Positions 3,001 through 27,470 of a stretch of DNA of 64,000 nucleotides are shown here, piece after piece. The stretch is from Candidatus Woesearchaeota archaeon (GTDB taxonomy: Archaea; Nanobdellota; Nanobdellia; Woesearchaeales; UBA10216). The notes under the pieces are model-generated. The model was not told where the DNA came from, made no database searches, and worked only from the letters and a program-made list of their open reading frames with translations. The translations under genes were made by a program, and so were the position numbers. Numbering within the stretch: position 1 is the stretch's first letter; each line of letters opens with the position of its first letter. Location of the stretch: the NCBI GenBank assembly GCA_016185705.1, contig JACPMZ010000003.1, positions 74,900 to 138,899 of the forward strand, read 5' to 3'.

Positions 3001-6000
3001 AATGAACGGAACATTCCTGAGCTGAGTGAAATTTTCAATGTACTGGTTGTTGGCAAAGTCAGTTGCATTAATGGTGATGTTGTAGTGCGAAGCATTAATC
3101 TGATTGGCGTCAAAGCTGATGTTCCAGTAACCATTTGCACGGTCGCCAACATACAGGTCCGGCTTGAGCCATTCTGTCGCCGAGTGAGGCGTCATTATTC
3201 TCACTGAAACGTTCACAAGATTGGTCTGCGTGTCATTTGCGGAGATGTTAATCAGGAAAAAGTCTGTGTGGTGGACAGAGTCGTTAACGAGGTTTATTAT
3301 GGAAATGTTTGGAATGGTGTTGTCAAAAACAACCGATACATTGCCGGTTACAGTCGGGAAGAGGTTGCTGTTGGATGCATTGACCGTGATGTTGTAGCTG
3401 CCTTCCGGAAATGCAGTGGTGTCAATCGTGGCGTTCCAGTAACCAGAAGTTGTGGTTCCTGAGCTTAAGCTCAACGGGATAAGCCCTGTCTGGTTGCCTG
3501 AGGAATTAAGAAGGGTTGCATTCACCGCGCTGACAGTAACAGTTCCGGTTTCATTCACCGATACGTTAATCAGGAGGTTTCCGGATATGTTTGCCCTGTT
3601 GACAGGAACTGTTATGGATACATTTGCAGGGTCATTGTCAATTGTAATTGTGGAAGCGTTTGTTACATTCTGGTTGCCTGCAACGTCAGTGGCGTTAATC
3701 GTAATGTTGTACTCGTCATCGCCAGTGTTTGTTGTTATGAGCGTTGCGTTCCATGAGCCCACGAACAGAGTGCCATCAGACAGGTTGGCATCAAGCCAGT
3801 CAAGCACTGTGTCGCCGTCTGCGGTCTGAAGCCTGTAAGTTACATTCAGGACTCCGCTCGTGGTTTCATTCACAGAGCCGTTTATCTGTATGGTGCCGCG
3901 CTGCACTGTTCCCGAAGCCGGTGTTATTACAGATATGTTGGGAGGCGTGTTGTCAATGGTAACTGTTGTTGCGTTGGTTACATTCTGGTTCTTTACGAAG
4001 TCAGTGGCGTTGATTGTGATGTTGTACTCGCCGTCTGCAATAGCCGTGCTGTCAAACGTCATGTTCCAGTGGCCGTTATCGGCGTTGCCATCGTAGAGCT
4101 TCACGTCCAGCCAAGCAGAGGTTGTGCCGCCTGCTGAATGCAGCCGGAACGTAACATTCATCACTCCTGTGCCAGAATCATTCACTGAGGAGTTAATCAG
4201 GAAACTGCCTAACTGTGTTGAGCCGCTGACAGGAACCATTATTGACACGTTAGGCACGTTATTGTCAATGGTTATGGACACATTCTCAGATATGTTTGTG
4301 TTTCTGCTCTTCTCATCAGTCCACGGAATGCTTCCTGAGTCAGTGGCATTAGAGCTCAAATTGTATACGCCGTCAGCAATGCCCAAGGCAACAGTGTCAA
4401 TGGTTACGTTCCGGTAGCCGGATTTGAGCGAGCCAACGCTTAAATTAGTGGCGATGGGCGAAACTGAATGCACAGAGCCGGGCCGAAGCAAGCTGATATT
4501 AACGTCAGGCACATCGCTTTCAGTGTCATTTACAGAAACGTTTATCGTAAAGGAGCCGGAAATGTTTTCCATTGCAGCAGGCAGCTGGATGCTGTTGTTC
4601 GGGGGAGTGGTGTCGAGCTCAATCTGCAGGTGGGTGTGGTTTACGATAACAAAGTCGTAGGGATTTGTTCCCTCTGACCAGCCGACTGCGATGTCTGTGT
4701 TGTTGGACACCTCCGGGGCAGTAAGCCCCTGCTTGACAGTTGAGGTGTTGACAAGCGTAAACTCCCCAGACCATGAGGTGTTGTCCCAAATCCTGTAAAG
4801 AACGGATTCATTGCCCTCAGGCGTGACATTAATGTAATACAGGAACAGGTGAGTGTCGTTCCTGCTGAGAACAGGGCCTGTCAGCTTTGGCAGGTTAGAG
4901 TCAGGTGCGGTAAACTGCTGAACCAGCGTCCAATCTGTCCTGTCGCCGCCGTCGCTTCTGAAATGACTGAGGGAGGTGTCGTTTGCAAAAACCACGTGGA
5001 TGTCAATATCGCCGCTGTTGTTGAACGAAATACCGCTCCATTGAGACGCGGAGCCTGTACCTCTGCCAAAAGTGGTGGATGCGGTCTGGGCTACGGCAAC
5101 CCCGCCATTCCAGGTGACATTCGATGCTTGGGCACCATCGCCTGCTGACACTGAAATCCTCATCATGTTGCCATTCTGAAGCGGGAAGAACTTGGACGAA
5201 GGGAAATTGGAGCCGGTGCTAGGCAGAGTCACATTCCAGTCGCCATCCCAGCTGTCGCCGTTGTCCGGATTAAGACTGTAATTATTCGGGAAAGTACTTG
5301 AGTGGCAGTTATTGCCTTCCTGGCCCGCAAAATAATAGTTCTCAGTGCTGATTCCAACTGTGGCGCCTGTGCCAGCGCACGCATCAGCCTGCTGTTTCAG
5401 CGAATAATTTATGGTAAAGTTGACGCTGCCGTCTGGAAAGGTGTTGCCGCGGGTGAAATTCATATATTTCTTAGTGCCATCATCACGAAGGCCAATAAAC
5501 AGGAAAGTGTCAAAGCCGTTTATTTCCTTGTAAACAACGTCGCCCCTGCTGGTGGTCCCGCCAGGCTGCTGCTCAGGGCTGCCCTTATTCCACACCACAA
5601 GGTCTGAACTGAAGTTGTGCTTGTATACATTGCTGTCAATATACCACGCAAACCAGTTGTTCCCGTCCCAGAAAATCTTTCTTTCGTAAGGAAAGTTGGA
5701 GATGATTGCTGAGTCAGTGAAAACAGTCGGGTCTATTGTTATGTTGCCTGCGTCCTTAATGCCATTAATCCGCACGACACTGCCGTCGCCTGATAAAGCA
5801 AAGCTGGATGCGATGTCAGAAAAGTCATACGTCAGGCTGCCGAGGTTTATCTGCATGGCATCGTGGTCAATGTTGAGCAGCCCGATGTTTGAGCTGCTGA
5901 AGTCCATGCCCAGGTATTCCATGCTATTCTTCAGGTTCTGGCAGTCCTGCGTGGCGTTCGCCAAAGTTAATCCAAAGTCCTGCTTCCAGCTGTTCAGGTC

Positions 6001-8712
6001 AATGTCTGACTTATCCCAGCTGAGTGCGTAGCAGCCGGCAGTATCCTCGGGAACGTAATGCCTGTTTCCGTTTGCGGACATGAAAACCCTGTAGCTCAGC
6101 TCGTTCCGGCTGCCGGAGTCTGTCCAGTTAAGGACAAAATGGGAGCTGTTCCAGGCAAACTGCGTCTGGAAGTCGCTGATGCTCTTGCGTGCCACGCGCA
6201 CAACTGTATCAGGCGAAAGCACGTCGTAAAATGCTTCAGCAACCGCTCCTGAGTAGTTGAAGTGCTGCACGTGCCTGCCATTGGTTTTTACAGTTGCCGT
6301 ATGGAACATTGTCTGGTTGCATTCCAGATTCCTTACTGAGTATCCGACGATATGGCTGCCGTCAGTCAACACTTCAGGGGCAATTACTGTTTCGCCGCAG
6401 CTGAACTGCACGAATTCAAGGTCCGGCTGCCGCTGCACGCCGTCCTTAAAGCCGGAGTAGCTCGTGCCGTTTGCAGCGGTTATTGTCAGGTTGCCGATGC
6501 CGGTTGCGTTAAATTCAACAGTCCAGTTCCTCTCAATGAAATCCTTTGTGTAAACATTAAAGATGAATATCTCAACCTCGTACAGAATGCTGCTTAAGCT
6601 TGGAACTATCCACTCAACCCTGTCAATCAGCCCGTTACTGTTGGTGTCAATTTTCTTAATGCCAGTGATTTCCACTTTTGTTCCGTTGACCAACGCGAAA
6701 AGCTTAACGAAATTCTCAGGGGTTTCCCTTATGTCAGTGTAGGCAGTGATGTTTTCGTAATGGGTTTCTGAAGAGATGTTAATCTGCTTCCTCGTTGAAT
6801 CTGTTTCATTTTCCATGGCTATTGGCGCAGGCGTCTGGTATTCCACTTCCAGCTCGGTGGCGTTTTCCTCAATAACCAGCGTTATGTTTTCGTCCACAGT
6901 GTCCTTCAGCAGTTTTTCCCTGGATGCTGCGACTGTTTTCAGGTGGCTGTCAAGCGTCTCAACTTTTTTGCCGATGCGCTCCTCCCTCTCAACCTTTACG
7001 CTGCCTGCAATGCTTTCGTTGTTTTCCCTGACTGTGATGTTAATTGCTTCCTTGGGAATCTCTGTTGTTGTGCTGGACTCATTCACCAGCGTGATTATTT
7101 TCTTCCACGACACTGGCTCGTTGATAACTGCCCGGCCCTGCACCAGTGTTTCGTCCTTGTCAGTAATGTTGCTGCGCGTTATGTTGAATGTGTTGGAGAC
7201 AGCAGAGTAGTCCAGGTCGGATGCTGTGATGAAGGCAAAGGCAGTTCCTTTGAATCCATTTTCAGCCAGTATGGACGCTGTGCCATCTGCAATATCTATC
7301 TTAACATCTCCTATGACTGTCGCATTGTAAGTAAGCTCATCACTGTCAGGGTCTTTGAAATGCTCGGGCAGCAGGATTCTTGCGCCAGTTGTCATGTTGC
7401 CAATGTCTGCGAAGAAATATGGCGGCCTGTTATCAAGATAGACTGTCAGTTCAGCAGTGTTCCCGGTTGTGGAGTTTAAGTCAGACGCTGTAAAAGTTAT
7501 TAAAGCTGTTCCTGCAAAGTTTTTTGCATGCGTTATCGCTGCAATGCTTCCGTTGATTGAAACATCTGCTATGTCAGCCAGCGTATATGTTGCTGCAAAC
7601 ATCAGCTCATCCCCTTCAGCGTCGTAGAAGTACCTGCTCAGGTTCAGCGTAAGCGTAGCATTCTGCTTTATGCTTTGGGCAGGTATTGGAAGCGCTTTCG
7701 GAGCGGCATTTTCCGAGAATGCAGCTTTGTAAGTCAGCGAATCTATGACAAGGACTGCATCCTGGACTGAAACAATCAGCTTTGCAGACCTGCTCGTTCC
7801 GCTTAATGCGCAGGTTTCAACACATTTGTTGCTGAATCTTGTTACCGGCAGGAACACTGCCTGCAGCGAGCTCCACCCGCTCGAGACAACATCCACAGCA
7901 GGTTCAGTAATTTCAAGGGTGTAATTCGCATAGATGACCTGCGCGCTCACAGTGTTGTTAAAGCCAGTTCCATAAGCTCCGTAAGGAATGTTGAGGGTCT
8001 GCCAATTGTTGGAAACAGGAGCAAGCTCTGCCAGGCTGCAGCATGCGGCATTGCCATTGCAGATAACAGTGGAAGTGTCTTTGTTTGCAGGGGCAATCTG
8101 CCAGCGCGTGCACAGATTTTCTTCAGGAACAGGCCAGCTGAATGCGGTGTTGTGCACTGTGTAGTCAATCGAGCCCTCACTTGTGTCAATGCCGTCATCA
8201 TCAGGGTCAAAGGCTGTTCCTGAATTGTACTCAAGCACGACTTCAATTGACTTATCAGCACTTTCAACCTGCCTGCCTGCTGCGGCATCTGACTCATCGG
8301 TTGCATTGGGAACAAAGTCAAATATCGGAACAGTGGTGTGCAGCTCCCTTATGTCCCTGACAAGCTGGCCTGATATTGACAGGAAGTTGCCGTTGCCATT
8401 GCCGGAAGCGGATTGGTTAAGGACAACATAACGCTTCCCCTCAATTTCAAGCAAAACAGCTACAGGGCCTGTTCCAACAATCACGCCGCTTACCGAAACT
8501 GAAGATGGAGGGGCATCCAGAGCCAGAGGAATTTCAGCATATGTGGCATTTGCAGACGATATGTGCAGGTCAAGCGTCTGTGTAATGGTTTTCTCAGCCA
8601 CCAAAAAGCCGGTAAGAGAAAGCTGGTCTGCGATTGCCAGCAGTGTAAGCATCAGAACTACAGCGAACACTGCTGCTCCGAATCCCTGCGCGGCTCTTTC
8701 AGAGCGGGTCAT
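1..8712 (-). CDS. giant secreted/surface adhesin-like protein (>2,900 aa; C-terminus beyond window start) with N-terminal hydrophobic signal/anchor, many Ig-like repeat domains and dense N-x-S/T sequons
   Basis: ATG at 8712-8710 preceded by GGAGGT; one continuous minus-strand frame to position 1 (all listed small minus ORFs in 1-8700 lie in a different frame and plus ORFs are antisense shadows); N-terminus MTRSERAAQGFGAAVFAVVLMLTLLAIA; ~105-aa tandem repeats (TIDNxxPNxS...YNITINATD...NQNVTNA) encoded by ~318-bp DNA periodicity around 3370-4650. Confidence 0.8.
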   Translation of the reverse strand, partial: MTRSERAAQGFGAAVFAVVLMLTLLAIADQLSLTGFLVAEKTITQTLDLHISSANATYAEIPLALDAPPSSVSVSGVIVGTGPVAVLLEIEGKRYVVLNQSASGNGNGNFLSISGQLVRDIRELHTTVPIFDFVPNATDESDAAAGRQVESADKSIEVVLEYNSGTAFDPDDDGIDTSEGSIDYTVHNTAFSWPVPEENLCTRWQIAPANKDTSTVICNGNAACCSLAELAPVSNNWQTLNIPYGAYGTGFNNTVSAQVIYANYTLEITEPAVDVVSSGWSSLQAVFLPVTRFSNKCVETCALSGTSRSAKLIVSVQDAVLVIDSLTYKAAFSENAAPKALPIPAQSIKQNATLTLNLSRYFYDAEGDELMFAATYTLADIADVSINGSIAAITHAKNFAGTALITFTASDLNSTTGNTAELTVYLDNRPPYFFADIGNMTTGARILLPEHFKDPDSDELTYNATVIGDVKIDIADGTASILAENGFKGTAFAFITASDLDYSAVSNTFNITRSNITDKDETLVQGRAVINEPVSWKKIITLVNESSTTTEIPKEAINITVRENNESIAGSVKVEREERIGKKVETLDSHLKTVAASREKLLKDTVDENITLVIEENATELEVEYQTPAPIAMENETDSTRKQINISSETHYENITAYTDIRETPENFVKLFALVNGTKVEITGIKKIDTNSNGLIDRVEWIVPSLSSILYEVEIFIFNVYTKDFIERNWTVEFNATGIGNLTITAANGTSYSGFKDGVQRQPDLEFVQFSCGETVIAPEVLTDGSHIVGYSVRNLECNQTMFHTATVKTNGRHVQHFNYSGAVAEAFYDVLSPDTVVRVARKSISDFQTQFAWNSSHFVLNWTDSGSRNELSYRVFMSANGNRHYVPEDTAGCYALSWDKSDIDLNSWKQDFGLTLANATQDCQNLKNSMEYLGMDFSSSNIGLLNIDHDAMQINLGSLTYDFSDIASSFALSGDGSVVRINGIKDAGNITIDPTVFTDSAIISNFPYERKIFWDGNNWFAWYIDSNVYKHNFSSDLVVWNKGSPEQQPGGTTSRGDVVYKEINGFDTFLFIGLRDDGTKKYMNFTRGNTFPDGSVNFTINYSLKQQADACAGTGATVGISTENYYFAGQEGNNCHSSTFPNNYSLNPDNGDSWDGDWNVTLPSTGSNFPSSKFFPLQNGNMMRISVSAGDGAQASNVTWNGGVAVAQTASTTFGRGTGSASQWSGISFNNSGDIDIHVVFANDTSLSHFRSDGGDRTDWTLVQQFTAPDSNLPKLTGPVLSRNDTHLFLYYINVTPEGNESVLYRIWDNTSWSGEFTLVNTSTVKQGLTAPEVSNNTDIAVGWSEGTNPYDFVIVNHTHLQIELDTTPPNNSIQLPAAMENISGSFTINVSVNDTESDVPDVNISLLRPGSVHSVSPIATNLSVGSLKSGYRNVTIDTVALGIADGVYNLSSNATDSGSIPWTDEKSRNTNISENVSITIDNNVPNVSIMVPVSGSTQLGSFLINSSVNDSGTGVMNVTFRLHSAGGTTSAWLDVKLYDGNADNGHWNMTFDSTAIADGEYNITINATDFVKNQNVTNATTVTIDNTPPNISVITPASGTVQRGTIQINGSVNETTSGVLNVTYRLQTADGDTVLDWLDANLSDGTLFVGSWNATLITTNTGDDEYNITINATDVAGNQNVTNASTITIDNDPANVSITVPVNRANISGNLLINVSVNETGTVTVSAVNATLLNSSGNQTGLIPLSLSSGTTTSGYWNATIDTTAFPEGSYNITVNASNSNLFPTVTGNVSVVFDNTIPNISIINLVNDSVHHTDFFLINISANDTQTNLVNVSVRIMTPHSATEWLKPDLYVGDRANGYWNISFDANQINASHYNITINATDFANNQYIENFTQLRNVPFIDYIANTAANDSALNQSFILINVTIVETNISNITFALYNASTNVTNITSTNDTALRLMNFTDLNPHELYYYNVTVISNNTAENTTETRTIRLDNRVPSFVNLTEPLDMNVSPQTVNFTWIAIDELSPPLTCSLVINDTTNISDVSTANNTLTNYTLRMNQGTYNWSINCSDRAENVNTSATFTFSIDVNAPDVTVTSPLNDTYTNTVLNISFTASDATGIANCSVFHNATGAYLRNATNESVTRNSNTEFSISGVNDGVQLVWAVECADAVVPDANVGITVNYTATFDTTAPASFTLTTPVNDTITTNTSPTFVWAAATESNFANYTLQIANISTFAAINATYYALAASSNTSLVPGVALANDIYWYWRVTAYDLASNSFTSQPFVYITDNSAPLIELVVNPATAELAEENISINWTARDIHLNESYVNISYADNGTFIRQLTENSTFNTSGLLVANYSIRLYAIDNASNTNTTVQNATTQDTTPPGVFTLLTPADNAVENNFTPTFTWEAAAEAKLANYTIEVTNSSSFAWVNFSNNATTEHYDSTDVLISDITWYWRVKAFDTAGNQRTSTDAFRYLHDNASPTIGGETRIPAAVLASSDVTVNASVSDARVSVVVVEGNWTGSLANTTVTNNSGGLYSYVIGSSELEGNEVVQWKYYANDTGGNTAEGTLQTFTVSNTVPGNTTLLLPANGSVQLHSSVIIAWTASSDDDGDTITYDLLIDDNADLATPHVNITGISGTTRTVTENLTSGQMFYAVRSNDAQNVSNFSGIHVMEVVIAAINITIDNLTQVFPGDVVRVNVSELNGTGWINEVNITIRSTNYTAADVGSNTWEYNYTVENITAQNLDITAYAFNDTTNSTAASRVTVQVLDASPALPVITLLCSNHTYALNNTNITVEVVSNPDTLLSAINVSIMMPNTSVDLPLHIQNGSTGLTYYHNYTYYIAETGNFTIEANITDIANQSAQKSSTFHAVNGTKHITLNDTTGINVTFLDVCTGFA

Positions 8713-8963
8713 GCCCTACCTCCAAAAACATTGTCCTCAAACACCCAGACAGCACCTTTCGTGCTAATCACGATTTTTTTGCTGAGCTGCAGGTAGTCAA
8801 GAACCTGAAGCAAAGTGCCGTGCATCACCTTTTTCGGAAGCTGCCTTTTGATGTCAGCAACGCTCAGCGGCTGCGCAGAAGACTTGAGAACGCCCTCAAC
8901 CATGAGAATGGTGTTCAAAGTAGGAGAATGCATGCTCCGGGATGTACGCCCCTTTTTCCTCAT
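8709..8963 (-). CDS. small (84 aa) basic winged-helix-like DNA-binding protein, translationally coupled (ATGA overlap) to the giant surface-protein gene
   Basis: ORF MRKKGRTSRS...; stop TGA 8711-8709 overlaps ATG 8712-8710 of downstream gene; helix-rich basic sequence. Confidence 0.5.
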   Translation of the reverse strand: MRKKGRTSRSMHSPTLNTILMVEGVLKSSAQPLSVADIKRQLPKKVMHGTLLQVLDYLQLSKKIVISTKGAVWVFEDNVFGGRA

Positions 8964-9209
8964 GACTTAACCTTCAACACTTAACACTTCAGTATATTTA
9001 TATATCAATTATGTATGAAAATGATTTTATTTAAAATTGAAATATTACGATTTAATATTAATTTAAATAAATCCGATATTTTTTTAATATTTATAATCAT
9101 TAACTTAATCTAATATTATATTTTTTTAAAGTAATTAGATATTCTTATACCTCTTTTTCTTATTAATTTAATTTTTTTTTGTATTGATTTAATACTAACT
9201 GATATACAT
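8964..9209 (-). promoter_or_regulatory. extremely AT-rich upstream region (putative promoter/regulatory region of the wHTH + giant surface protein operon)
   Basis: ~250 bp of >85% A+T with many TATA-like and TTTAAA/ATTTAAAT motifs directly upstream of 8963. Confidence 0.4.
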
Positions 9210-9425
9210 TTATATATATTCTTTTCGGTTTTTGGGAGAATGCGTTGATCTTAAATCCAGAACTTTTATAGCCTGTTCATTCACTGTGCTCTTGACTTTT
9301 ATGCCAGCGACAGCAGGATGATTCTTCTTGATGAAGTTTTCTCCGGGCTTTATTCCCTGCTTGAATTTCTTCTTTGAGTAGAGAAAAACTGCTGTAACAA
9401 GATCATCTCGCTCAGGAGCAAGCAT
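9210..9425 (-). CDS. hypothetical small protein (71 aa)
   Basis: ORF only; no recognisable motif. Confidence 0.25.
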   Translation of the reverse strand: MLAPERDDLVTAVFLYSKKKFKQGIKPGENFIKKNHPAVAGIKVKSTVNEQAIKVLDLRSTHSPKNRKEYI

Positions 9426-9514
9426 TTCAGAATCAATGAGAATGTCTTCGGATGCAAGAGCATGTTCTGGCTCAAATTCGTGGTTTTCAGGTTTTTTGAC
9501 TCCTTAGTGGCTTT

Positions 9515-9569
9515 ATGACGCTTTTTAGAAAATCCGTCATAACTACTTTCAAATGATGAAACATTTATA
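9515..9569. repeat. left copy of perfect 55-bp direct repeat flanking the RM/EVE cassette; contains palindrome TTATGACG-N16-CGTCATAA and a decoy start ATGATGAAACATTTATAA (MMKHL*)
   Basis: identical 55 nt at 9515-9569 and 13121-13175 (atgacgctttttagaaaatccgtcataactactttcaaatgatgaaacatttata). Confidence 0.9.
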
Positions 9570-9644
9570 ATCCGTCCTATCTATTACCACGTCGTGAATA
9601 CGGATAATTTCTCATTTTTAAGGATTTGACCATTTTACGACGCT

Positions 9645-9671
9645 ATGACGCTTTCCTCAAATCCGTCATAA
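9645..9671. repeat. degenerate third copy of the repeat core (atgacgctttcctcaaatccgtcataa)
   Basis: shares atgacgcttt..aaatccgtcataa with the 55-bp repeats. Confidence 0.6.
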
Positions 9672-9779
9672 GCAGATGAGTTTTTCTGAAAACCCAGATG
9701 AAAGTAAGCGGAAACTTCAGAAATCGACGGAAATTTGAATTTCTTTGCTCTGATCTTGAATATAAAGTTAGAAAGTCTC

Positions 9780-11282
9780 TCAAAGAAATGCATTCAACAC
9801 TACTTGCTGTCTGGATAAATAATACTGCTCAACAAGATGATCAGGTAGAGGTAGCCTTTCTAAATTTCTAGGTTCAACCTTTACAGCTCCAGAACCATAA
9901 CTCTTACCAACCAATTTTAGATTCTCAATGGTTTCTGGGTGATTCAAAATCTCCCATAATGCATTAATGTACTTCTCATCATTTCTCTTAGGGTATACGC
10001 ATAAAAACCCAGTCAGGGGAACAACCCCCGCTTCATTTTTGATAAATCTTGAATTTCTACGACCTAAATACGCAAATAGCAATGCAGGAGTCTCTCTTCT
10101 CTCCATATAGTACCATTTCTTTCTTTGCTTAATCAATGCTCTGTTAGGTAAATCTAACTTAACTCCTTTTTTTATATAGTTAGCTAATGTTTCAGGAAGG
10201 TTCTCACACTGTTGATTTATTGATAATAAATATGTTGGTCGCCCTTTATCTTCAAGTTCTCGTATATCTTCTTTGCTCAGCAGATTACCTGTTGCATCTC
10301 TCGTTCTACCGATTGCTAATTTTAAAAAATTTTTTGGTATTTGCAGTTCCTCCACTTGTTCTTTTGTAAGAAAAAAAAATTCGTTTGCTCCTGTAGCAAT
10401 CCCTCTCATCACATTAGCAAAATCGCTTAGATGATACTTGAATCCATTATTTAGTTGTTGAGGTCGTGATAGTCCAGTCTCTAAAGCCTCTTTTAATGTT
10501 CTTGTTGTTATTTCAAGATTGTTTAATGACCTATCCTGGAAATCAGACTCTGCAAAATTGTAAAGGTCATCTGTATCAGCTTTATTTACTCTTACCCATT
10601 TAATTTCTTTTTTTTGCATCTCTTTTTTTATGAAAAATATAACTGCATTTGTATCTATTGACGGAAAGGGTGTTGCTTTTTCATCAAAGGTAATTACACA
10701 CTCTAAAGAAAAATTTCTGGTTATCCAATTCCATAATCGTTTAGCAAAAGTTCCCTCGCATGTATCTGCCGGCATAATAAATGCTAATCTTCCTTTATTC
10801 TCCAATAAGCTTAAAGCCTGAATAAGAAAATAGATATGATAACCGGCACGCCCATCGATTATTACTCCTGTCTTCTTTTTAGATAATTGTTTTAAAAATA
10901 GTTTTGTTTCTTTATCTATTCTGTGATGTCTAATATAAGGGGGATTAGCAACAACTGCCTTAAATCTTTCATTTGGTGGATTCTTTAAGAAATCTCTCTG
11001 TTCGACATGGCAATTTACTTCCTTGTAGATATCTTCTTTAAGAACTTCTATATCAATGTCTATTCCGTAGAAATTAGTATTTTTACTTCTATCAATTTCA
11101 TTCAATGCTTTCAGGAATGCACCGCTTCCGGTCCCGGGGTCGAATATCTTGCTTGAATTTTTCTTTACGTAAGAAACCATAGCTTTAGCTACCCAATTTG
11201 GTGTCCAGAATTGACCCTTATTCCTCAATTTTTCTCTTTCTTCGTGTTTTGTCGGTATCTTCTGACTTGCCATTTGAATCAT
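9780..11282 (-). CDS. type II N6-adenine DNA methyltransferase, gamma class (TaqI/Eco57I-like) with C-terminal target-recognition domain
   Basis: motifs FWTPNWVA (motif X), DPGTGSGAFL (motif I, SAM), NPPY (motif IV) in gamma order; 500 aa. Confidence 0.85.
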   Translation of the reverse strand: MIQMASQKIPTKHEEREKLRNKGQFWTPNWVAKAMVSYVKKNSSKIFDPGTGSGAFLKALNEIDRSKNTNFYGIDIDIEVLKEDIYKEVNCHVEQRDFLKNPPNERFKAVVANPPYIRHHRIDKETKLFLKQLSKKKTGVIIDGRAGYHIYFLIQALSLLENKGRLAFIMPADTCEGTFAKRLWNWITRNFSLECVITFDEKATPFPSIDTNAVIFFIKKEMQKKEIKWVRVNKADTDDLYNFAESDFQDRSLNNLEITTRTLKEALETGLSRPQQLNNGFKYHLSDFANVMRGIATGANEFFFLTKEQVEELQIPKNFLKLAIGRTRDATGNLLSKEDIRELEDKGRPTYLLSINQQCENLPETLANYIKKGVKLDLPNRALIKQRKKWYYMERRETPALLFAYLGRRNSRFIKNEAGVVPLTGFLCVYPKRNDEKYINALWEILNHPETIENLKLVGKSYGSGAVKVEPRNLERLPLPDHLVEQYYLSRQQVVLNAFL

Positions 11283-12214
11283 GCTTTTTCCAAAACATCC
11301 AATGCTTCCTGAGTAATGTCCATTAAGCCTCCATTAAAAGTAACATAAGGCAATATGTGGCCATTTTTATCTTCAATATACTGAGGCACTAACTCCGGTT
11401 TACTTTTTGAGATGCCCAGTTGATAAGCATAAAGATAATATATTTTGTATATGGCTTTACTTGTAGTTGCTCCACCTGGAGCTTGGAAAACTTGGATAGT
11501 TTGCTGAATTAATCCTTCGTCGAACAATCTTTCAGCTTCATCCAGAGCTATACCGTATGCTCTGTCAAAGAATACATGCCAGATATGTATGGGGATCTTA
11601 TTCTGGCTCTGCCATTTTTTTAATGGGGCTCTATCTTCCTCTTTTATAATTACTGTTGGAACAACTGCAGTTTTCTTCAGACCCATTTTTCCTTCCAATC
11701 GCTTCCGGGGAGTAAGTTCACTTCCATAGTCTGGCATTTTCTCAGCCACCCAAAGAGAATTTTCACATTCAACAGCAATTATTGCTTTTTGGATAAGTTC
11801 TTTCATCTCATCTTCTTTAATGAACGGAAGTTCGCTTGCCCCACCAACTTTACCAAGAAATTTGTCAACAAAAGCTTTATCTCCTATTTTGAAAACAAGT
11901 ATATCTGGTCTCTTAATATCTCCTAAACCTGCTTTTTCAAGTCTCTCGAAATATAATTCAAAGGCTCTAACATCATCAGTTGGCGCTGTTCCACTTGGCC
12001 CATAAGGGATTGCATAGAATTTTCTAGTTTTATTAACTGCTTCTATTACTCGTTTCTCACTCCACACTCCTTGCGACCAACGCATCAAAAAATCACTACC
12101 TCTTAATCTTCTCGGATTAAGCAAGAAATTTGACCAACCCACCTCCTTTAAACCTCTAAGTTCTAGTTCAATATCCTCGAGCATTACACTCAGTATCTTC
12201 TCAAACGGATGCAT
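11279..12214 (-). CDS. putative cognate type II restriction endonuclease (311 aa); identity not provable from sequence
   Basis: 4-bp overlap (ATGA) with downstream methyltransferase gene, same strand; possible PD...(D/E)xK-like segment RPDILVFKIGDK / AIIAVECE; no match to housekeeping families. Confidence 0.45.
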   Translation of the reverse strand: MHPFEKILSVMLEDIELELRGLKEVGWSNFLLNPRRLRGSDFLMRWSQGVWSEKRVIEAVNKTRKFYAIPYGPSGTAPTDDVRAFELYFERLEKAGLGDIKRPDILVFKIGDKAFVDKFLGKVGGASELPFIKEDEMKELIQKAIIAVECENSLWVAEKMPDYGSELTPRKRLEGKMGLKKTAVVPTVIIKEEDRAPLKKWQSQNKIPIHIWHVFFDRAYGIALDEAERLFDEGLIQQTIQVFQAPGGATTSKAIYKIYYLYAYQLGISKSKPELVPQYIEDKNGHILPYVTFNGGLMDITQEALDVLEKA

Positions 12215-12224
12215 TTTTTATCAT

Positions 12225-12626
12225 CTACTTTTCCAAATATATATAATCAGAGGGGGTAATGTTAATTATAGACCTCCCCATTAATACTGTTCCCCATCTC
12301 AAAGTATTCTTGAATATAGATAAATTAGCAGGAATATTTTTCCCGCTTGACCAATTGTTTATTTCAATGGGGTTTTTTAAGATTAATTTAGGTTCGATAT
12401 CAATATAATATTTAAATTGCTTATTCCTAAATCTTACTTTTTTCTGAGAAGGTATTGACTTTATTTCAAACGTGGCACAAATTCTTTTAGGTATAAGATA
12501 GATGACTAAACGATCCCCTTTTTTGATTAAATTGTATTGATTTTCAGATTTTACTGCATAAATATTATTGGATTGAATTTTTTCCCAATTCTCCTCATCA
12601 GTTAGAGCTAACCAATACTTAGTCAT
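12225..12626 (-). CDS. EVE domain (PUA-like, PH1033 family) protein, predicted modified-base-binding reader
   Basis: MTKYWLALTDEENWEKI...GDRLVIY...FEI...LRWG...DYIYLEK closely parallels the Pyrococcus PH1033 EVE-domain pattern (YWIxxTxENWExI...GDxLVIY...RW). Confidence 0.8.
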   Translation of the reverse strand: MTKYWLALTDEENWEKIQSNNIYAVKSENQYNLIKKGDRLVIYLIPKRICATFEIKSIPSQKKVRFRNKQFKYYIDIEPKLILKNPIEINNWSSGKNIPANLSIFKNTLRWGTVLMGRSIINITPSDYIYLEK

Positions 12627-12777
12627 TTATTATCACTTTTTTGTTAGATTTATCTAATTCATTTCTCATGAAATTTTCAAATTGCCGTGAAAGTATCCAT
12701 CCTTTTCTTTCGCAGATACTTTTGTAATCATCATAAACCTGCTCATCAACACTTAATGATATTACTTTTTTTGCCAT
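12619..12777 (-). CDS. ribbon-helix-helix (CopG/Arc-like) DNA-binding protein; candidate controller of the cassette (likely start MAKKV at 12777; longer ORF to 12810 exists)
   Basis: KKVISLSVDEQVYDDYKSICERKGWILSRQFENFMRNEL is a typical RHH beta-strand + two helices; overlaps EVE gene start by 8 bp. Confidence 0.65.
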   Translation of the reverse strand: MAKKVISLSVDEQVYDDYKSICERKGWILSRQFENFMRNELDKSNKKVIIND

Positions 12778-12779
12778 TT

Positions 12780-12944
12780 TTATCCCTTTGAAAACCTTAA
12801 ACCAAGCCACGTGAATAAACAGCCTATAAGAAAAATTACAACTTTAGTTCCGAAAGGATCTTTTCCAAAAAATGAATACAAAACAGCTCCAAATCCAATG
12901 ATTACAGCCGCTGCGGTTCCACTTATAAGTTTTGTATCTCCCAC
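12780..12944 (-). CDS. possible tiny hydrophobic membrane peptide (~54 aa, GTG start) immediately upstream of the RHH gene
   Basis: VGDTKLISGTAAAVIIGFGAVLYSFFGKDPFGTKVVIFLIGCLFTWLGLRFSKG; AAGGTGA upstream; stop TAA 4 nt before RHH ATG. Confidence 0.25.
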   Translation of the reverse strand: MGDTKLISGTAAAVIIGFGAVLYSFFGKDPFGTKVVIFLIGCLFTWLGLRFSKG

Positions 12945-13120
12945 CCAATCACCTTATTTATGTTTATATAAGCGTAAATATCCAGGTATATAAAGTTTTC
13001 TCTGACCTGTCCAGTGACCAGTGGAAAAAATAAAATAAGCGAGTCGTTACTTCGCTCCATTTTGCCTGCAACACCCTAAGTTTACGCCTGAGGATGCTTT
13101 CCTGTTCTGAAGGTGGCAAA

Positions 13121-13175
13121 ATGACGCTTTTTAGAAAATCCGTCATAACTACTTTCAAATGATGAAACATTTATA
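13121..13175. repeat. right copy of perfect 55-bp direct repeat; here it supplies the 5' end of the downstream methyltransferase ORF
   Basis: identical to 9515-9569. Confidence 0.9.
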
Positions 13176-14112
13176 TATTCATATAAAATATCAGAGTGAG
13201 CATGCAAACATTTCCTGTCAGCAATGCTTCGGAAAACGTGCAGCAGAGGGTATAACTCCAATGGCTTTGCCTGACATATTGACGCGCACACTGAGACAAA
13301 TAGCGCCGCGTAAAGCCAAGAAGCATTATATAGATCCCTGGCGTTTTTTAATTCCTCTTGTTAAAGGACAGGTATCTACGGATTATCAGCGTTTCTGGCA
13401 GAAGTACTATGCAGATTTACCCAGCCCTTCAGACAAGGATACCATTAAGCCTGGAGAGGAACCGCAATCAGCGGCATACCATTATACTGCAGTAAAGCTG
13501 TCCATACTTCAGAGTTTGAATTTAAACCCAGACCTTTATCCTAAGCGTCCCAGCGTGCTTGACATAGGCACCGGGACCGGGCATTGGATTGATTTCTATC
13601 TTGGCGAAGTGTTTAATGCTTCCCGCGTTACCGGCGTGGAAATTGCACCGTCTGCAGCAGAGTTTCTCAGAGAAAAATACAGTTCAAGAAGTGACGTTAC
13701 TATAATGGAAGCTGACATTTCAAAACCGGGTTTTTCCCTGGAAGACAAGGTCGGCATAGTTAACGCAATCGGTGTCATGTTCCATATAGTGCCTGATGAG
13801 GGATGGAAAAGAGCAATTGCGAATATTGCAAATGCTTTGGATTATAACGGGGTTATTTTGGTTGGAGGTCAGTTCAGAAGAATTCCTCCTCCTTTGGGCG
13901 GGCTTGTCCAATTTGAAAAAATACCTCCTGGGATGAATGATGAAGTTAAATACGTTGCTACCAAGAGACTTCGCTCCCTTGGCTATTGGAAAAAAATTTT
14001 AGGCGAGCATGGCCTTGAGGTTGTAGACATGATAAAAACCAAGGCACACCCCCTTATCTCAACCCCTGAGAACAACATACTGGTAGCCAGGCACAGCCGC
14101 AGCAAATTTTAA
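13159..14112 (+). CDS. class I SAM-dependent methyltransferase (probable true start at ATG 13261, MALPDIL...)
   Basis: VLDIGTGTGHW motif I; first 34 codons of the long ORF are AT-rich repeat-derived sequence. Confidence 0.75.
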   Translation: MMKHLYIHIKYQSEHANISCQQCFGKRAAEGITPMALPDILTRTLRQIAPRKAKKHYIDPWRFLIPLVKGQVSTDYQRFWQKYYADLPSPSDKDTIKPGEEPQSAAYHYTAVKLSILQSLNLNPDLYPKRPSVLDIGTGTGHWIDFYLGEVFNASRVTGVEIAPSAAEFLREKYSSRSDVTIMEADISKPGFSLEDKVGIVNAIGVMFHIVPDEGWKRAIANIANALDYNGVILVGGQFRRIPPPLGGLVQFEKIPPGMNDEVKYVATKRLRSLGYWKKILGEHGLEVVDMIKTKAHPLISTPENNILVARHSRSKF

Positions 14113-14237: not shown

Positions 14238-17200
14238 TTGAGAAAAGAGGCCATATTAATGGAAGCCAGGGAAATCGCTATTATTTCGGCAGCATTTTTT
14301 CTGCTTATAGTGCTTGTATTTGCAGCCACGCCCGAGGCAGAGATGATTGTGTTTGATGACGTCCTGCAGAACGGGTTCAAGACAAACGAGTGGGAAGCGC
14401 CTGACGGGGCAACGTGCATCCTGAGCACAGCTTATACAGCAGAGAAGGCATCCGGAACTGCTTCAATACAGACAAACCTCAACAACTACTGCACAGTTTT
14501 CCTTTACAGGGATATAACCTTTGACATAGCTGATTACACGCAGGTGGAGTTTGACATATACGGCAGCAGCCCGTCGCTTACAGAATTTAACGTCAAATTG
14601 GCGACCAACTCCTACCAAACGACTGGAAGCATTGTGCCGATATCCGATTACGTCACAGTCTCAAACAAGTGGCAGCACGTAACAATACCCCTGAAAGACT
14701 TCAGCGTGGAATCCGGAACAAAAATTGCCGGAATACAATACAGGGATGCAGGAATCACAGGGCGGGGAAACGTGCTGCTTGATAACGTGAGGTTCGTCAA
14801 GATGAAGGACACCACAGGGCCTGTTCTGCAATCAGCTTCCATAACAACACAGGACTCAGTGAGGATAGACTTTGACGAGGGGCTTGATGCCACAGCCGCG
14901 AATCCAGGCAATTACCTAATCTCATCACTGACTGACTCTGCATTCGTCTTGCCCCTGGCGCCGGCGTCAGCAGAGCTGCTGAACCAAAAAGGCGTATCGC
15001 TCAAACTAAGCAAAGAGCTCAAGAACGGACACACATACATCATAGTTGTCAACAATGTAAAAGACCTGGCTGGCAACGCCATTACAGCAGGCTCATCCAT
15101 CAGCCTGCCTGTAACAATATCAGGCGTTGCGCTGAATGTGGACGCATCCAGAACCATAAGGCCCTTCAACAGCAAGATGAGGGGCGTCCAGCTGGCATGC
15201 TGGATGCACGAGCAGGGAAACAAGCCAAGCCCTGAAAATGCAGCGAACCTTGCCGAACTGACCAAACCGCTGAAGCCGGGCATAATAAGATACTGCGGCG
15301 GCTTGTGGGCTAACAACGTCGGCTGGGACAGAACCGGGCAGGCCCCCAAGGACGGGATGTGGAACTGGGTGAATCCGGACACAGCAGCAAAGCTTCCATA
15401 CAGCTACACCCACGCATACAAAGCAGCGTGGATTGACAGCCTGGGAAGGTTCCTTAAGGAAGTAGGAGCAGAGGCAATGATACAGGCAAACCTCTGCGAC
15501 AACAATCCACAAATGTGGGCAGACATGGTGAAGTATGCGAATGTTGAGAAGGGCTATGGCTTCAAATACTGGGAGCTAAGCAACGAAATTGACCTTGAAG
15601 ATGCCATAAGGGAAAAATGCTTCGGAACAACAGACAAGACTGCCTCAGCCAGGAACTATTCCAAGAGGTTTGCAGCATATACCAAAGCAATGAAGGCAGT
15701 TGACCCAAACATAAAAACAATGGGCCCTGTTACTGCAAACTACTACAGCGCACCTACTTGGTTCCCGCCGCTGGCAAATGAAATGAAAAGCCAGGGACTG
15801 AACCTTGACGTGATGTCATGGCACTGGTACCAAATATTTGATTTTTCAACAGACCCAAGCACAGAAGTGTACGATTATGGTTCACTGGCAGCGCTTCTGA
15901 ACTACAACACAGCGCTGACAAGCCAAAACAGCCCTTACAACAAAGGAGATGTCATACAGCCGCCCAGCCACGGAACAGCAGAGCACTGGGTGTACAGGTC
16001 AAGACGGGCATTCGCAGAGCACACAGCCAAAGATGCACGCTTATATGCAGCTGACTTTCCCAACGCAGAATTAGCGGTAACAGAAGCAAACTCCCACGGC
16101 TCTGATTTCACCACCTCGCTGAACGGCAACCATCTCGGGGCTGTGCGAATGGCAGACTACCTCGGAAGAGCTGCATACAACGGGCTGGACATAAACATCT
16201 GGTATGAGCTGTACGACGGCGGGGCAACCGGAATTTCTTACGGGCTGATTTATCCGGACAATGATGCCAACCCGACAAAGCTCTTCATCAGGCCAACATA
16301 TTACCCTATGCTGATGTACGCCCAGTGGTTCGGCGACACAATGGTGCAGTCTTCAACTGCTGACCCGGCACAAAATGTAGTGGTGTGGGCAAGCACCGAC
16401 ACCTTAGATTCAGGCAAACTAAAACTAATGCTCATAAACTTCAACTCAACAGTTGTAACCGCAACCGTAAACATAGCAGGGTTTACGCCCAAGAGCGGCA
16501 AATACTACCAGATGGCAAGCGCAAACCCAGCCAACCTGGACCGCTCCATGGCCAACAGCGGCGGAGAAACAACCATCAACGGATACAAACTGGATACAAC
16601 AGCAAGCAAAATCCAGCAGTCAATTGACGCCATAGCCCCAATCGCGCCATCAATAAGCGGAAACACGATAACGCAAACCCTTCAGCCGTATTCTGTAACT
16701 GCAATAGTGCTGAGTTCCACAGAATCCGTATCGCCGCAACCCCAGCAGCCAGCGCCACAGCTGCCGGATACCGCTGCGCCAATAATTTCAGCCTACTCAC
16801 CGGCAAAAGGAGAGTCCAATGTCAACAACAACAAGGCAATCAGCATGCTCATCCAGGACACAGGCGCCGGAGTGGATAAAAATTCAATAGAGCTGTTTGT
16901 CAAGGGCGTGAAGAAAACACCAGCAATAACAGGAACCAGCGCAGCATACACAGTAACATACACGCCAGAAATGCCATACCTGAACGCCGAGATAATCAAT
17001 GTACTGGTTAAAGCAAGCGACCTCTCAGGCAATCCGGCAATTGACAGCTACTACTTCACCATAGGAGGGGCTGCAATATGCTCGGACGGCATCTGCTCCT
17101 ACAGCGAAAGGGAAAGCTGCCCGCAGGACTGCGCATACGTAAAAGGAAACTTCAGCGACAGCAGCCACAACTTTGAAAACTTCAAGATGCGGATAAACAG

Positions 17201-18467
17201 CAGCGAAGACATCTACAAATACTTTGACCGCGAATTGCCCGTAGAATTCCTTGAAGAAATAAGCGGCTCAACAATTCCAAGAATAAAGTTTGACTTCAAA
17301 TTTGACATGGGCAAATTCCTTAATTTCAATGAGCTTCATTACTTCAAGCAGAAAGCAGCGGACAGAAGAGGATACCTTTACATGTCAGGGCTCAACGTTT
17401 CAGGCGAACTGAAGAGCTTCCTCATAGACCGGGTTAATGGAAGCAGCAATGCTGTCTGCATAAAGGATGCGGAAATCACAAACATAAGCGAAGTGAGCGA
17501 AGCATGCAGCCAGGCATCAGAGCAGCTTCTGATATGCGACGGGAAGCAGCGAAACGGCTACAAATGCGTGACGCAAGGCAACTACTTCAACGTGTCCGGA
17601 TTAACGCACTCAGCTGTGGTGGAATACGTGGCAGCATGCGGAAACAGCAGATGCGATGAGAGCGAATCATGCTCAAGCTGCAGCGCGGACTGCGGGGCAT
17701 GCGCTGCTGCAAGCACACCAAGCAGCTCATCCGGCGGAGGCGGAGGCGGGGGAGGCGGCGGTGGCGGTGGCGGCGGAGGCAGCAGCCAAAAGCTTTCAGA
17801 AAAAGTAACGCTGGACGGCACTCTTGAAGCAGGAAGCAGCGGAAGCTTTGCATTCAGCAAGCACATAGATGCCCTTTCAGTATACCAAGTCGATGTTGTA
17901 ACAAACTTCCAGGCAACAACACCGTCATTAACGCTGCAGGAAGTTTCGCTGTCAAAAGAAGTGCCAAGCGCCACTGACGCAGGCGAGAAGCTGTATTCAA
18001 TTGTCCAGCTTTCCCGCATCGGGCTAAGCGATGACGTTAAATCAGACATCAGGTTTAAGATAAAAAGCGAGTGGTTTATAAAAGAAGAGGTGGACGCCTC
18101 AACCATAGTGCTGAAAAAGCTGTCAGGAGACAAATGGATAAAGCTGCCAACCATTCATGCAGCCGAAGAACCGGGATACCATGCTTACAGCGCAAGCCTC
18201 ACAGGACTGTCAATATTTGCAGTGGTCGGAGGGCAGACAAAGCCAGCGCCGCAGCAGCAAACCATACAGCAGGAAAAAAGAGCTGACAAGTACGCCAATG
18301 AAATCAATGAGATTAAAGCTGAACCAATAGTCAGCAAGAAAAGGTCGTTCTTTGCGCTGAAGCAGGTATTCTCAATAATCGTGATTATGGCAGCCCTGCT
18401 CTTAGTATACGAGGTTGTGCATAAGATAAGGAAACGCAACCGGTCAGCAGAGTCCTACATTAACTGA
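14238..18467 (+). CDS. large surface protein (1409 aa): signal peptide, glycoside-hydrolase-like TIM-barrel region (YWELSNE), Ig-like domains, PQ-rich linker, Cys-rich module, (Gly)16 linker, C-terminal TM anchor with basic tail
   Basis: N-term MEAREIAIISAAFFLLIVLVFAA; WELSNEID resembles GH clan-A acid/base NE(P) motif; ICSDGICSYSERESCPQDCAY; C-term FFALKQVFSIIVIMAALLLVYEVVHKIRKRNR. Confidence 0.8.
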   Translation: MRKEAILMEAREIAIISAAFFLLIVLVFAATPEAEMIVFDDVLQNGFKTNEWEAPDGATCILSTAYTAEKASGTASIQTNLNNYCTVFLYRDITFDIADYTQVEFDIYGSSPSLTEFNVKLATNSYQTTGSIVPISDYVTVSNKWQHVTIPLKDFSVESGTKIAGIQYRDAGITGRGNVLLDNVRFVKMKDTTGPVLQSASITTQDSVRIDFDEGLDATAANPGNYLISSLTDSAFVLPLAPASAELLNQKGVSLKLSKELKNGHTYIIVVNNVKDLAGNAITAGSSISLPVTISGVALNVDASRTIRPFNSKMRGVQLACWMHEQGNKPSPENAANLAELTKPLKPGIIRYCGGLWANNVGWDRTGQAPKDGMWNWVNPDTAAKLPYSYTHAYKAAWIDSLGRFLKEVGAEAMIQANLCDNNPQMWADMVKYANVEKGYGFKYWELSNEIDLEDAIREKCFGTTDKTASARNYSKRFAAYTKAMKAVDPNIKTMGPVTANYYSAPTWFPPLANEMKSQGLNLDVMSWHWYQIFDFSTDPSTEVYDYGSLAALLNYNTALTSQNSPYNKGDVIQPPSHGTAEHWVYRSRRAFAEHTAKDARLYAADFPNAELAVTEANSHGSDFTTSLNGNHLGAVRMADYLGRAAYNGLDINIWYELYDGGATGISYGLIYPDNDANPTKLFIRPTYYPMLMYAQWFGDTMVQSSTADPAQNVVVWASTDTLDSGKLKLMLINFNSTVVTATVNIAGFTPKSGKYYQMASANPANLDRSMANSGGETTINGYKLDTTASKIQQSIDAIAPIAPSISGNTITQTLQPYSVTAIVLSSTESVSPQPQQPAPQLPDTAAPIISAYSPAKGESNVNNNKAISMLIQDTGAGVDKNSIELFVKGVKKTPAITGTSAAYTVTYTPEMPYLNAEIINVLVKASDLSGNPAIDSYYFTIGGAAICSDGICSYSERESCPQDCAYVKGNFSDSSHNFENFKMRINSSEDIYKYFDRELPVEFLEEISGSTIPRIKFDFKFDMGKFLNFNELHYFKQKAADRRGYLYMSGLNVSGELKSFLIDRVNGSSNAVCIKDAEITNISEVSEACSQASEQLLICDGKQRNGYKCVTQGNYFNVSGLTHSAVVEYVAACGNSRCDESESCSSCSADCGACAAASTPSSSSGGGGGGGGGGGGGGGGSSQKLSEKVTLDGTLEAGSSGSFAFSKHIDALSVYQVDVVTNFQATTPSLTLQEVSLSKEVPSATDAGEKLYSIVQLSRIGLSDDVKSDIRFKIKSEWFIKEEVDASTIVLKKLSGDKWIKLPTIHAAEEPGYHAYSASLTGLSIFAVVGGQTKPAPQQQTIQQEKRADKYANEINEIKAEPIVSKKRSFFALKQVFSIIVIMAALLLVYEVVHKIRKRNRSAESYIN
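17733..17780 (+). repeat. (GGN)16 trinucleotide tract encoding 16 consecutive Gly (poly-Pro on antisense)
   Basis: ggcggaggcggaggcgggggaggcggcggtggcggtggcggcggaggc. Confidence 0.9.
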
Positions 18468-26799: not shown

Positions 26800-27470
26800 T
26801 AAACGTAGCTGTCCCTTCTTGCGTGTTTGTAGATGAGCAGTCCAACTGCAGCTATGACTGCCACGCTGACCAAGATTATCGCGTATGTGATTAGATTGTT
26901 GCGGTCATCCCTGCCCTCCTGACTTGACATTTCAACTTTTTCAATAAAGCAATCTGCATCCACTGAAGAATCACAATCAGGGTCACATACGTTATCCTGA
27001 AGCTCCACGCAGTAACCATCCGCCGTACCTGCAGGGCAGTCTTCACTACACGATCCATAGTTCTCCTGATCCTGGCAAATGTTGTCGCCACAAACGTTTG
27101 CAAATCTTAAGACGTCTATTTCTGCTAACGTTGCTCCATCGGGCGCTGACAGACGTATCAGCGCCCCATCCCGAAAGTAAGCAGCGGAAACAAGATTAGA
27201 TTCAATAGCCATACTGTGATGATCTGTGATAACTACTTCCGGATCGTTCGTTGGACTATGTGTGTGATAGTCAAACCCCTCCTCCAATCCAAACGTAAAT
27301 GTATCTAATACTTCGTTATCCTGCGATATAAGAAAATACCGGTAGTCACCTGGCAAGTTTGATATAAATCCTTCACCAATACTGACATCAGCGACCACAT
27401 CCCCGCTATCGCCTGAAAGTTCAATCCGATAAATTTTATCAGTTGCACTTACGAACGTACTTAACGCCAA
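26796..27470 (-). CDS. secreted Cys-rich protein with C-terminal TM anchor (signal peptide likely extends upstream with non-ATG start, ...KKIFAVACIFLALSTFVSA)
   Basis: Cys-rich module CGDNICQDQENYGSCSEDCPAG...CDPDCDSSVDADC then ITYAIILVSVAVIAAVGLLIYKHARR; module resembles the one in 14238-18467 protein. Confidence 0.65.
   Translation of the reverse strand: MALSTFVSATDKIYRIELSGDSGDVVADVSIGEGFISNLPGDYRYFLISQDNEVLDTFTFGLEEGFDYHTHSPTNDPEVVITDHHSMAIESNLVSAAYFRDGALIRLSAPDGATLAEIDVLRFANVCGDNICQDQENYGSCSEDCPAGTADGYCVELQDNVCDPDCDSSVDADCFIEKVEMSSQEGRDDRNNLITYAIILVSVAVIAAVGLLIYKHARRDSYVY

Follow-up and report, generated by a model that had tools for sequence, protein, structure and literature searches.

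Stand-alone EVE proteins in restriction-modification (R-M) loci have been described by Bell, Wolf and Koonin (2020; PMC7641849), who found them, mostly in archaea, beside type I R-M systems and beside the COG1743-DUF499-SWI2/SNF2 system, and predicted that they aim restriction at modified DNA; the text of that paper makes no mention of AccI. Here we analyse a stretch of 64,000 nucleotides (nt) from a Candidatus Woesearchaeota archaeon, a member of the DPANN archaea (contig JACPMZ010000003.1, positions 74,900 to 138,899 of the forward strand; hereafter the window), in which an EVE gene is part of a cassette that lies between direct repeats at window positions 9515-13175. The partner genes in this cassette are of a different kind, a type II pair with an endonuclease of the AccI family. 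The locus is, on balance, probably a horizontally acquired, self-contained type II R-M operon, composed of genes for a ribbon-helix-helix (RHH)-like protein, an EVE protein, an AccI-family restriction endonuclease (REase) and a methyltransferase (MTase), and placed in an intergenic region of a DPANN chromosome; the EVE protein would be coupled to restriction, and a repeat unit found at the cassette borders would have mediated entry. To our knowledge, stand-alone EVE proteins in classical R-M operons are predicted to matter, and none has been tested.

The initial annotation of the cassette listed four co-directional, overlapping genes between the repeats, and the map of open reading frames (ORFs) agrees, with all four tightly packed on the minus strand. 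The gene at 9780-11282 (minus strand) codes for a gamma-class N6-adenine DNA MTase of 500 amino acids (aa), which has an NPPY motif (within VVANPPYIRHH) and an Eco57I-type C-terminal recognition domain. This assignment, also made initially, was confirmed by matches to the Pfam families N6_Mtase (1e-17), Eco57I (2e-16) and M_Eco57I_C (3e-8) and to PADLOC MTase_II (2.5e-66); solved relatives in the PDB are CamA and M.TaqI. The adjacent gene, at 11279-12214 (minus strand), overlaps the MTase gene by 4 nt and encodes a protein of 311 aa, previously left unassigned in what was taken for a type II-like R-M pair. Its N-terminal part, to which the profile match is confined, matches RE_AccI (PF09545) with 52.8 bits (cut-off 22; E 4e-14), PADLOC REase_II is matched at 4e-12, and NCBI names an identical protein "AccI family restriction endonuclease". 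The pair is thus a genuine type II R-M pair, and the 311-aa protein is an ordinary AccI-family enzyme, not a housekeeping non-nuclease. Its homologues form 2549 clusters, the best 120 of which are 72-76% identical to it, and many come from Bacteroidota and Ignavibacteria. RPD (residues 103-105) and ECEN (148-151) followed by K are at least 98% conserved among 120 homologues; no solved structure was found for any relative of the REase that could anchor this motif. As for specificity, 8 GTMKAC sites were counted versus 11.5-18 expected from Markov models, which is no clear depletion; a sevenfold depletion of AccI sites under the mononucleotide model vanished under order-3 and order-4 models, and site avoidance was discarded as evidence.

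In comparison with described AccI-family R-M systems (PF09545 plus an Eco57I/TaqI-like gamma N6-adenine methylase), the cassette shares both core genes, their order and the overlap of their ends, and its REase and methylase are, respectively, 72-76% and 61-78% identical to many bacterial and metagenomic members. It differs in its additional RHH-like and EVE genes, its DPANN host and the flanking repeat unit. The REase and MTase genes are a complete, widely transferred two-gene defence unit that occurs without EVE in the great majority of cases.

Immediately upstream of the REase gene, 12225-12626 (minus strand) encodes a stand-alone EVE protein of 133 aa, a PUA-like protein of the PH1033/UPF0310 type. 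The EVE call, made initially from the sequence, is borne out both by profile and by fold. The protein scores 26.9 bits against PF01878 (cut-off 23; E 5.6e-6) and matches the archaeal NCBIfam model PRK00809 over its full length with an E-value of 3.5e-14, yet below the 139-bit cut-off of that model. An AlphaFold model computed from 11 homologues (mean predicted local confidence, pLDDT, 84.7) was most similar in a Foldseek search to MJECL36 and PH1033 (2p5d, 2hd9 and 1wmm; TM 0.83, E 2e-10), followed by YTH domains and VcaM4I. An unfused small PH1033-type EVE protein inside a methylase-nuclease operon, predicted to read a modified base, is also what the archaeal EVE-type I R-M loci contain (PMC7641849); in our case EVE is partnered with a type II pair of the AccI family, its gene directly precedes the nuclease gene, and an RHH-like gene stands ahead of both.

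This RHH-like gene (12619-12777, minus strand) is a candidate. It would encode 52 aa from an ATG at 12777, with the ORF remaining open to a GTG at 12810, and overlaps the start of the EVE gene by 8 nt. Its earlier assignment as an RHH DNA-binding protein was confirmed neither by profile searches nor by fold: there was no Pfam, NCBIfam, PDB-sequence or significant Foldseek match. Its support consists of a homologue with 50% identity that occupies the corresponding position in the metagenomic context L009 and itself matches DUF6364 weakly (1.5e-3), and of a monomer model with an extended N-terminus followed by helices at residues 12-25 and 31-44. In opening with a small gene for a putative DNA-binding protein, placed ahead of the nuclease gene, the operon recalls type II R-M systems controlled by C-proteins, but the cassette protein is not a helix-turn-helix C-protein, a reader gene is interposed and no C-box was identified.

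The distribution of the module was followed through metagenomic contexts, which are designated here by L numbers. Exact-protein look-ups recovered the identical cassette from several metagenome runs, and EVE homologues of 55-78% identity were found in five other contexts, in four of which (L004/5, L006-8, L009 and L027) the EVE-R-M order is intact. In these, the EVE gene lies directly upstream of, and usually overlaps, an AccI-family REase gene; the MTase gene follows, except in L006-8, whose contigs end inside the REase gene, so that it is not visible there. L009 also has a homologue of the RHH-like gene ahead of the three. The fifth context (L028/29; 142-1323 in L028) contains a 60%-identical EVE gene, the first 30 nt of an REase gene and then a gene for the TATA-binding protein (TBP), and looks like a decayed copy of the module that lost its R-M genes; the retained 30 nt indicate that this EVE gene derives from a three-gene EVE-R-M module. 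Three REase homologues of equal similarity in unrelated bacterial chromosomes belong to plain R-M pairs with nothing upstream. Since such EVE-less pairs exist, and since there are 11 EVE clusters versus 2549 REase clusters, we conclude that the R-M pair is autonomous and that EVE, often with an RHH-like gene, is a rare accessory of a small sub-lineage, placed directly upstream of the nuclease gene. MTases of EVE-positive loci are 68-78% identical among themselves. Their identity to the three EVE-less MTases is 61-64% in two cases and, for L024, 67-73%, which overlaps the EVE-positive range. The arrangement had been called unusual: it is indeed rare, but it is not unique, as RHH-EVE-R-M or EVE-R-M order recurs in several metagenomic contigs and the combination of EVE with type I systems has already been published.

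Additional nuclease genes accompany EVE in some contexts. In L006-8, a PDDEXK_1 nuclease that is Cas4-like and has cysteines clustered at its C-terminus is encoded by a gene (L006 1679-3295, L007 926-1657, L008 863-1594) that overlaps the EVE start by 8 nt, resulting in the order nuclease, EVE, AccI REase. In the wider EVE subfamily, comprising 183 representative clusters at E<=1e-3, one distant relative follows an Eco57I/TaqI_C methylase gene, and another (L031) comes after the Mod and Res genes of a type III system, in an operon that also has a UvrD_C-PDDEXK_1 gene. We also observed that the Cas4-like nuclease of L006 is fused to a PEP-utilizers domain and that a PemK toxin pair adjoins the L006-8 genes. 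A promoter-like sequence (GACAAGTG..TAA..TTTATAAACATATG) upstream of the RHH/EVE genes is common to L009 (ca. 300-345) and L004 (ca. 4690-4730); in L004, the RHH gene appears to have been deleted down to a short remnant.

These contexts bear on what the EVE protein might do. One possibility is that RHH-EVE is an independent toxin-antitoxin-like or regulatory module that rides upstream of the R-M genes with no functional coupling to restriction. The 8-nt overlap between a small RHH-like gene and a gene for a protein of ca. 135 aa is as in type II toxin-antitoxin pairs, EVE domains are known in toxin-antitoxin contexts (PMC7641849), the R-M pair is autonomous elsewhere, and one EVE homologue (L028) is found without an R-M pair, next to a TBP gene. 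However, the EVE gene runs into or directly adjoins the start of the REase gene in all but one of the five other contexts, across homologues of 55-78% identity and also in L004, which lacks the RHH gene, and the lone EVE gene of L028 still has the first 30 nt of the REase gene. We therefore regard independence as unlikely. In the mechanism we propose, the EVE protein would bind a modified DNA base and so couple nuclease activity to the methylation state. Tentatively, that base may be the N6-methyladenine (m6A) made by the partner methylase, in which case EVE could act, for example, as a buffer or timer that restrains the co-translated nuclease until the genome is methylated. This is weakly favoured because a separate reader cannot easily re-aim a sequence-specific type II enzyme at modified DNA.

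A type IV-like role is nearly as likely, though it too is no better than a possibility: EVE would read foreign modified bases that escape the type II enzyme and direct the AccI-family or another nuclease to them, so that the operon would hit both unmodified and hypermodified DNA. This is the role proposed by Bell, Wolf and Koonin for archaeal stand-alone EVE proteins (PMC7641849). In VcaM4I and its relatives, modified bases are read by EVE and PUA-like domains, and the Cas4-like PDDEXK_1 genes of L006-8 and the UvrD_C-PDDEXK_1 gene of L031 could supply the additional nuclease. On the other hand, no extra nuclease gene is present in the window, and it is not obvious how a separate reader would restore the activity of a sequence-specific type II enzyme that base modification blocks. 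A reader that accepts m6A would also find potential self-targets in the sites modified by the cognate methylase. The cassette EVE shares its fold with the readers of type IV fusion nucleases (VcaM4I, EVE- or YTH-McrB), but type IV enzymes are defined by modification-dependent cleavage with no partner methylase, whereas here EVE is unfused and both a cognate methylase and a classical type II REase are present. Both the binding target of EVE and its contact with the nuclease are things that we infer, which counts against our overall reading of the locus, and all characterised defence-related PUA-like readers that we know of act in modification-dependent restriction, which favours the type IV-like role over the reading of self-made m6A.

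The evidence for acquisition comes from composition and from the repeats. GC content drops from ca. 0.48-0.50 to 0.28-0.39 between ca. 8970 and 13000. In the window, the host strongly avoids GATC (33 sites versus ca. 246 expected), CTAG (11 sites), TCGA (38) and GTAC (67); the 4.2-kb island alone holds 7 GATC, 3 CTAG and 8 TCGA sites. The GC drop and the restriction-site content together indicate recent acquisition of the island, and the cassette block, with a GC content of 0.31-0.39 versus ca. 0.48 in the host, is foreign to its host. The repeats are as initially described: a repeat finder recovered a perfect 55-nt direct repeat (9515-9569 = 13121-13175; spacing 3606 nt), the left copy of which, on read-out, is indeed ATGATGAAACATTTATAA, inside a 63-nt repeat (9507-9569 and 13113-13175) with three mismatches near its left edge. 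Such a repeat is far beyond chance.

The repeat had been explained as a duplicated 5' end of the host gene to its right, which codes for a class I S-adenosylmethionine (SAM)-dependent methyltransferase, and the right copy had been taken to supply the first five codons of that gene. The ORF of 317 aa is open from 13159, inside the right repeat, but the NCBI product (P0012) has 283 aa and starts at M35 (13261), and the N-termini of seven homologues align to M35; the gene proper is 13261-14112 (plus strand; Methyltransf_25, 1.6e-12). The repeat is therefore intergenic, ca. 86 nt upstream of the likely start, and a coding role for it is probably wrong. Nor does the duplication hold, since the repeat is a portion of a unit of ca. 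100 nt that has a third copy in the cassette and is also found in other DPANN contigs. What stands of the proposed insertion near the SAM-methyltransferase gene is the foreign composition and the repeat-bounded block; the site is intergenic and the repeat belongs to the wider unit.

The unit consists of an arm of ca. 44 nt, a palindrome (ATGACG-N13/14-CGTCAT) and a tail that ends in GAAACATTTATAA and, to judge by its letters, resembles an archaeal transcription factor B recognition element (BRE) followed by a TATA box. The full copy at 9471-9570 (plus strand; nhmmer, 1.2e-24) holds the left direct repeat, with arm, palindrome (ATGACG-N14-CGTCAT) and GAAACATTTATAA, and is 85% identical over 100 nt to copies in the contigs L011, L013 and L016. 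A third, partial copy lies at the inner left end of the cassette (9602-9703, plus strand; 1.7e-17) and keeps the arm and palindrome (ATGACG-N13-CGTCAT at 9645-9669), while the BRE/TATA tail is not conserved. The copy with the right direct repeat (13074-13176, plus strand; 1.3e-22; palindrome at 13121-13146) closes a conserved right cassette end (12985-13176, plus strand), in which it is preceded by a segment shared with contig L015. A scan of the 64-kb window with nhmmer revealed no unit copies beyond the three around the cassette, which ruled out a genome-wide promoter module. We also noted that the first cassette bases, ATCCGTC (within 9570-9600), duplicate the right half-site of the palindrome (AAATCCGTCAT), and that the same ATCCGTC pairs with ACGGAT at ca. 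9600 as a 6-bp inverted repeat.

Several other identities for the unit were considered and rejected. ARAGORN found no tRNA that could serve as target, and Rfam gave no small RNA at gathering scores and nothing at E<=1 on the unit regions. A structured RNA was discarded, as RNAalifold yielded merely -7 kcal/mol and the main palindrome is invariant, with no covariation; a C/D-box RNA was discarded in the absence of a CUGA box on inspection. An integrase split across the repeats in the manner of SSV viruses was also ruled out: reading frames that run through the repeats meet a stop immediately and have no matches. The unit was absent from the viral collections searched.

When the unit was scanned in one genome per species and in the metagenomes of the Joint Genome Institute (JGI), it was found in the Woesearchaeota metagenome-assembled genome (MAG) B72_G16 from Guaymas (L013/L016), in the Pacearchaeota MAG J156 (L011) and in a short Guaymas contig (L015), to whose start the right 190 nt of the cassette are homologous. 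Three bacterial palindrome matches (L010, L012 and L014) were set aside as chance, because their flanks are unrelated. On the arm side, L011 and L013 share 140 nt at 100% identity; on the other side they part immediately past the TATA-like motif (at TTTATAAAG). In the copies of L011, L013 and L015, homology stops at most 3 bases past TTTATA, and a distance of exactly 30 nt separates the ATG of the adjacent gene from the initial T of the terminal TTTATAA (L011 2404-2455, minus strand; L013 4172-4225, minus strand; and L015 225-259, plus strand). This spacing would fit a promoter for a leaderless mRNA. The three genes 3' of the unit are all different, a metallophosphoesterase gene and two of unknown function, and the N-termini of their products resemble, by eye from the translations, a signal peptide or a membrane segment. 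In L016, the unit divides DNA of 0.31-0.35 GC with host-like genes from DNA of 0.42-0.45 GC. The ca. 100-nt unit sits at junctions of foreign and host DNA, at the cassette borders and elsewhere in DPANN. On the higher-GC side in B72_G16, L016 4874-8962 (= L013 4306-8000) contains several small ORFs without family hits and a gene for a 684-aa Walker-type ATPase, which has just a weak, sub-threshold AAA match; this stretch is possibly an integrated plasmid- or virus-like element.

As to how the cassette entered, a circular form of 3.6 kb could have recombined, Campbell-style, with a resident copy of the ca. 100-nt unit, through a recombinase that would act in trans; a crossover at the unit would leave the identical 55-nt core on both sides. 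More speculatively, and with considerable doubt, the unit may be the recombination site of an undescribed DPANN cassette system with a trans-acting recombinase, in which cargo is joined at the BRE/TATA motif, so that each insertion, of whatever cargo, would rebuild a promoter with the correct spacing for a leaderless mRNA of the gene downstream. The cargo of such a system would so far comprise the EVE-bearing R-M operon and, elsewhere, the element with the weak-AAA ATPase. Like integrative elements flanked by att sites, the cassette carries a discrete defence cargo between palindrome-bearing direct repeats; unlike them, it has no integrase, and no tRNA or other RNA target was found. Archaeal integron cassettes typically carry R-M genes and genes for signal-peptide proteins (PMC9668308). 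The unit differs from integron attC sites, since on inspection neither strand has the RYYYAAC and GTTRRRY cores and it ends in a BRE/TATA-like motif, and no IntI gene was present among the ORFs searched.

Several observations speak against entry through the unit. No recombinase was found among the cassette ORFs or among ten further window ORFs that were searched, and no empty site was found, the nearest SAM-methyltransferase homologue being just 41% identical. The 13-14-nt spacer of the palindrome is unlike the core sites of tyrosine recombinases. The low-GC island starts at ca. 8970, which is ca. 540 nt outside the left repeat, and its history must therefore be more complex than one insertion. 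Finally, 55 is the default largest k of metaSPAdes, and a perfect repeat of exactly this length means that the assembler could have threaded a separate circle into the contig.

In that event, the chromosome would have a single unit copy, and the cassette would be a 3,606-bp circle that shares a 55-mer with it, 55 nt of perfect identity being just enough for two paths to be joined in the graph of such an assembler. Independent unitigs from Logan (k=31) reproduce the cassette exactly (9540-13150) and end, wherever they reach the repeat, 30 nt into it, those of the host flank at 9544; this is expected for any repeat longer than k and fits both topologies. An apparent sequence variant at the left island edge, suggested by two Logan unitigs (L037 1-19 and L038 1-19), was dismissed, as both unitigs end in Nextera adapter (CTGTCTCTTATACACATCT). 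However, the similarity continues imperfectly past 55 nt, to 63 nt and into the arms, a third unit copy stands beside the left repeat, and the cassette has no replication gene, which makes a stable free replicon unlikely. Integration is favoured on the last ground, and an assembly effect seems to us improbable; if it were the true explanation, the cassette would still be a discrete element that recombines at the unit.

The palindromes themselves might also suggest a non-autonomous element of the insertion sequence (IS) type IS200/IS605 or of the PATE (palindrome-associated transposable element) type, with subterminal hairpins in direct orientation and moved by a single-strand transposase encoded elsewhere. 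Near each cassette end there is a related palindrome, both in one orientation: that at 9645-9669 is 75 nt away from the left boundary and that at 13121-13146 is 29 nt away from the right one; a further copy is found just outside the cassette. Their short stems (6-8 bp), their loops (13-14 nt, AT-rich and conserved), the weak fold (-7 kcal/mol) and the lack of covariation in the main palindrome do not suit such hairpins, no TnpA or TnpB gene was seen, and an identical 55-nt block that includes the tail would be easier to explain by a crossover than by two ends retained independently. We consider this origin very unlikely and retain recombination at the unit as the way in which the cassette would have arrived.

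Other features of the island and its surroundings are as follows. Outside the repeats, the AT-rich left part of the island (8970-9470; GC 0.28) contains two GATC sites in the GATC-avoiding host and an ORF of 71 aa without family hits (9210-9425, minus strand), and may be a remnant of an earlier element. Inside the cassette, ahead of the RHH-like gene, a putative gene for a 54-aa protein (12780-12944, minus strand), in which two apparent membrane-spanning segments can be seen by eye, has a sub-threshold DUF7555 match alone and is outside the region common to other R-M modules. An ORF of 68 aa (12964-13170, minus strand) overlaps the right cassette end and is probably not coding; the homologous sequence of L015 has a stop at codon 5.

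Further away, 13 of the 33 GATC sites of the window cluster at 27052-31285, over ORFs of 224 and 1393 aa without Pfam hits, and may mark a second region of foreign origin. To the left of the island, a giant ORF (1-8715, minus strand) runs off the start of the window; it has at least 2905 codons, corresponds to 3313 aa on Logan contigs, shows faint Big-domain matches and presumably codes for a surface protein. Its start is overlapped by a winged-helix-like ORF of 84 aa (8709-8963). To the right, an ORF of 1409 aa (14238-18467, plus strand), with a run of ca. 16 glycines after a serine-rich stretch and a hydrophobic C-terminal segment, looks like another surface protein.

Stand-alone EVE proteins in classical R-M operons were known; what the present locus adds is a type II pair as the partner and, at the borders, an unexplained DPANN repeat unit. 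The pair is compact and conserved and occurs naturally both with and without the reader, and would thus allow a clean with/without test of what a modified-base reader adds to a methylation-blocked nuclease. The repeat unit, for its part, may indicate how defence cassettes that lack a recombinase spread in DPANN archaea, a group in which little is known of mobile elements, and might show how insertions keep the neighbouring gene expressed.

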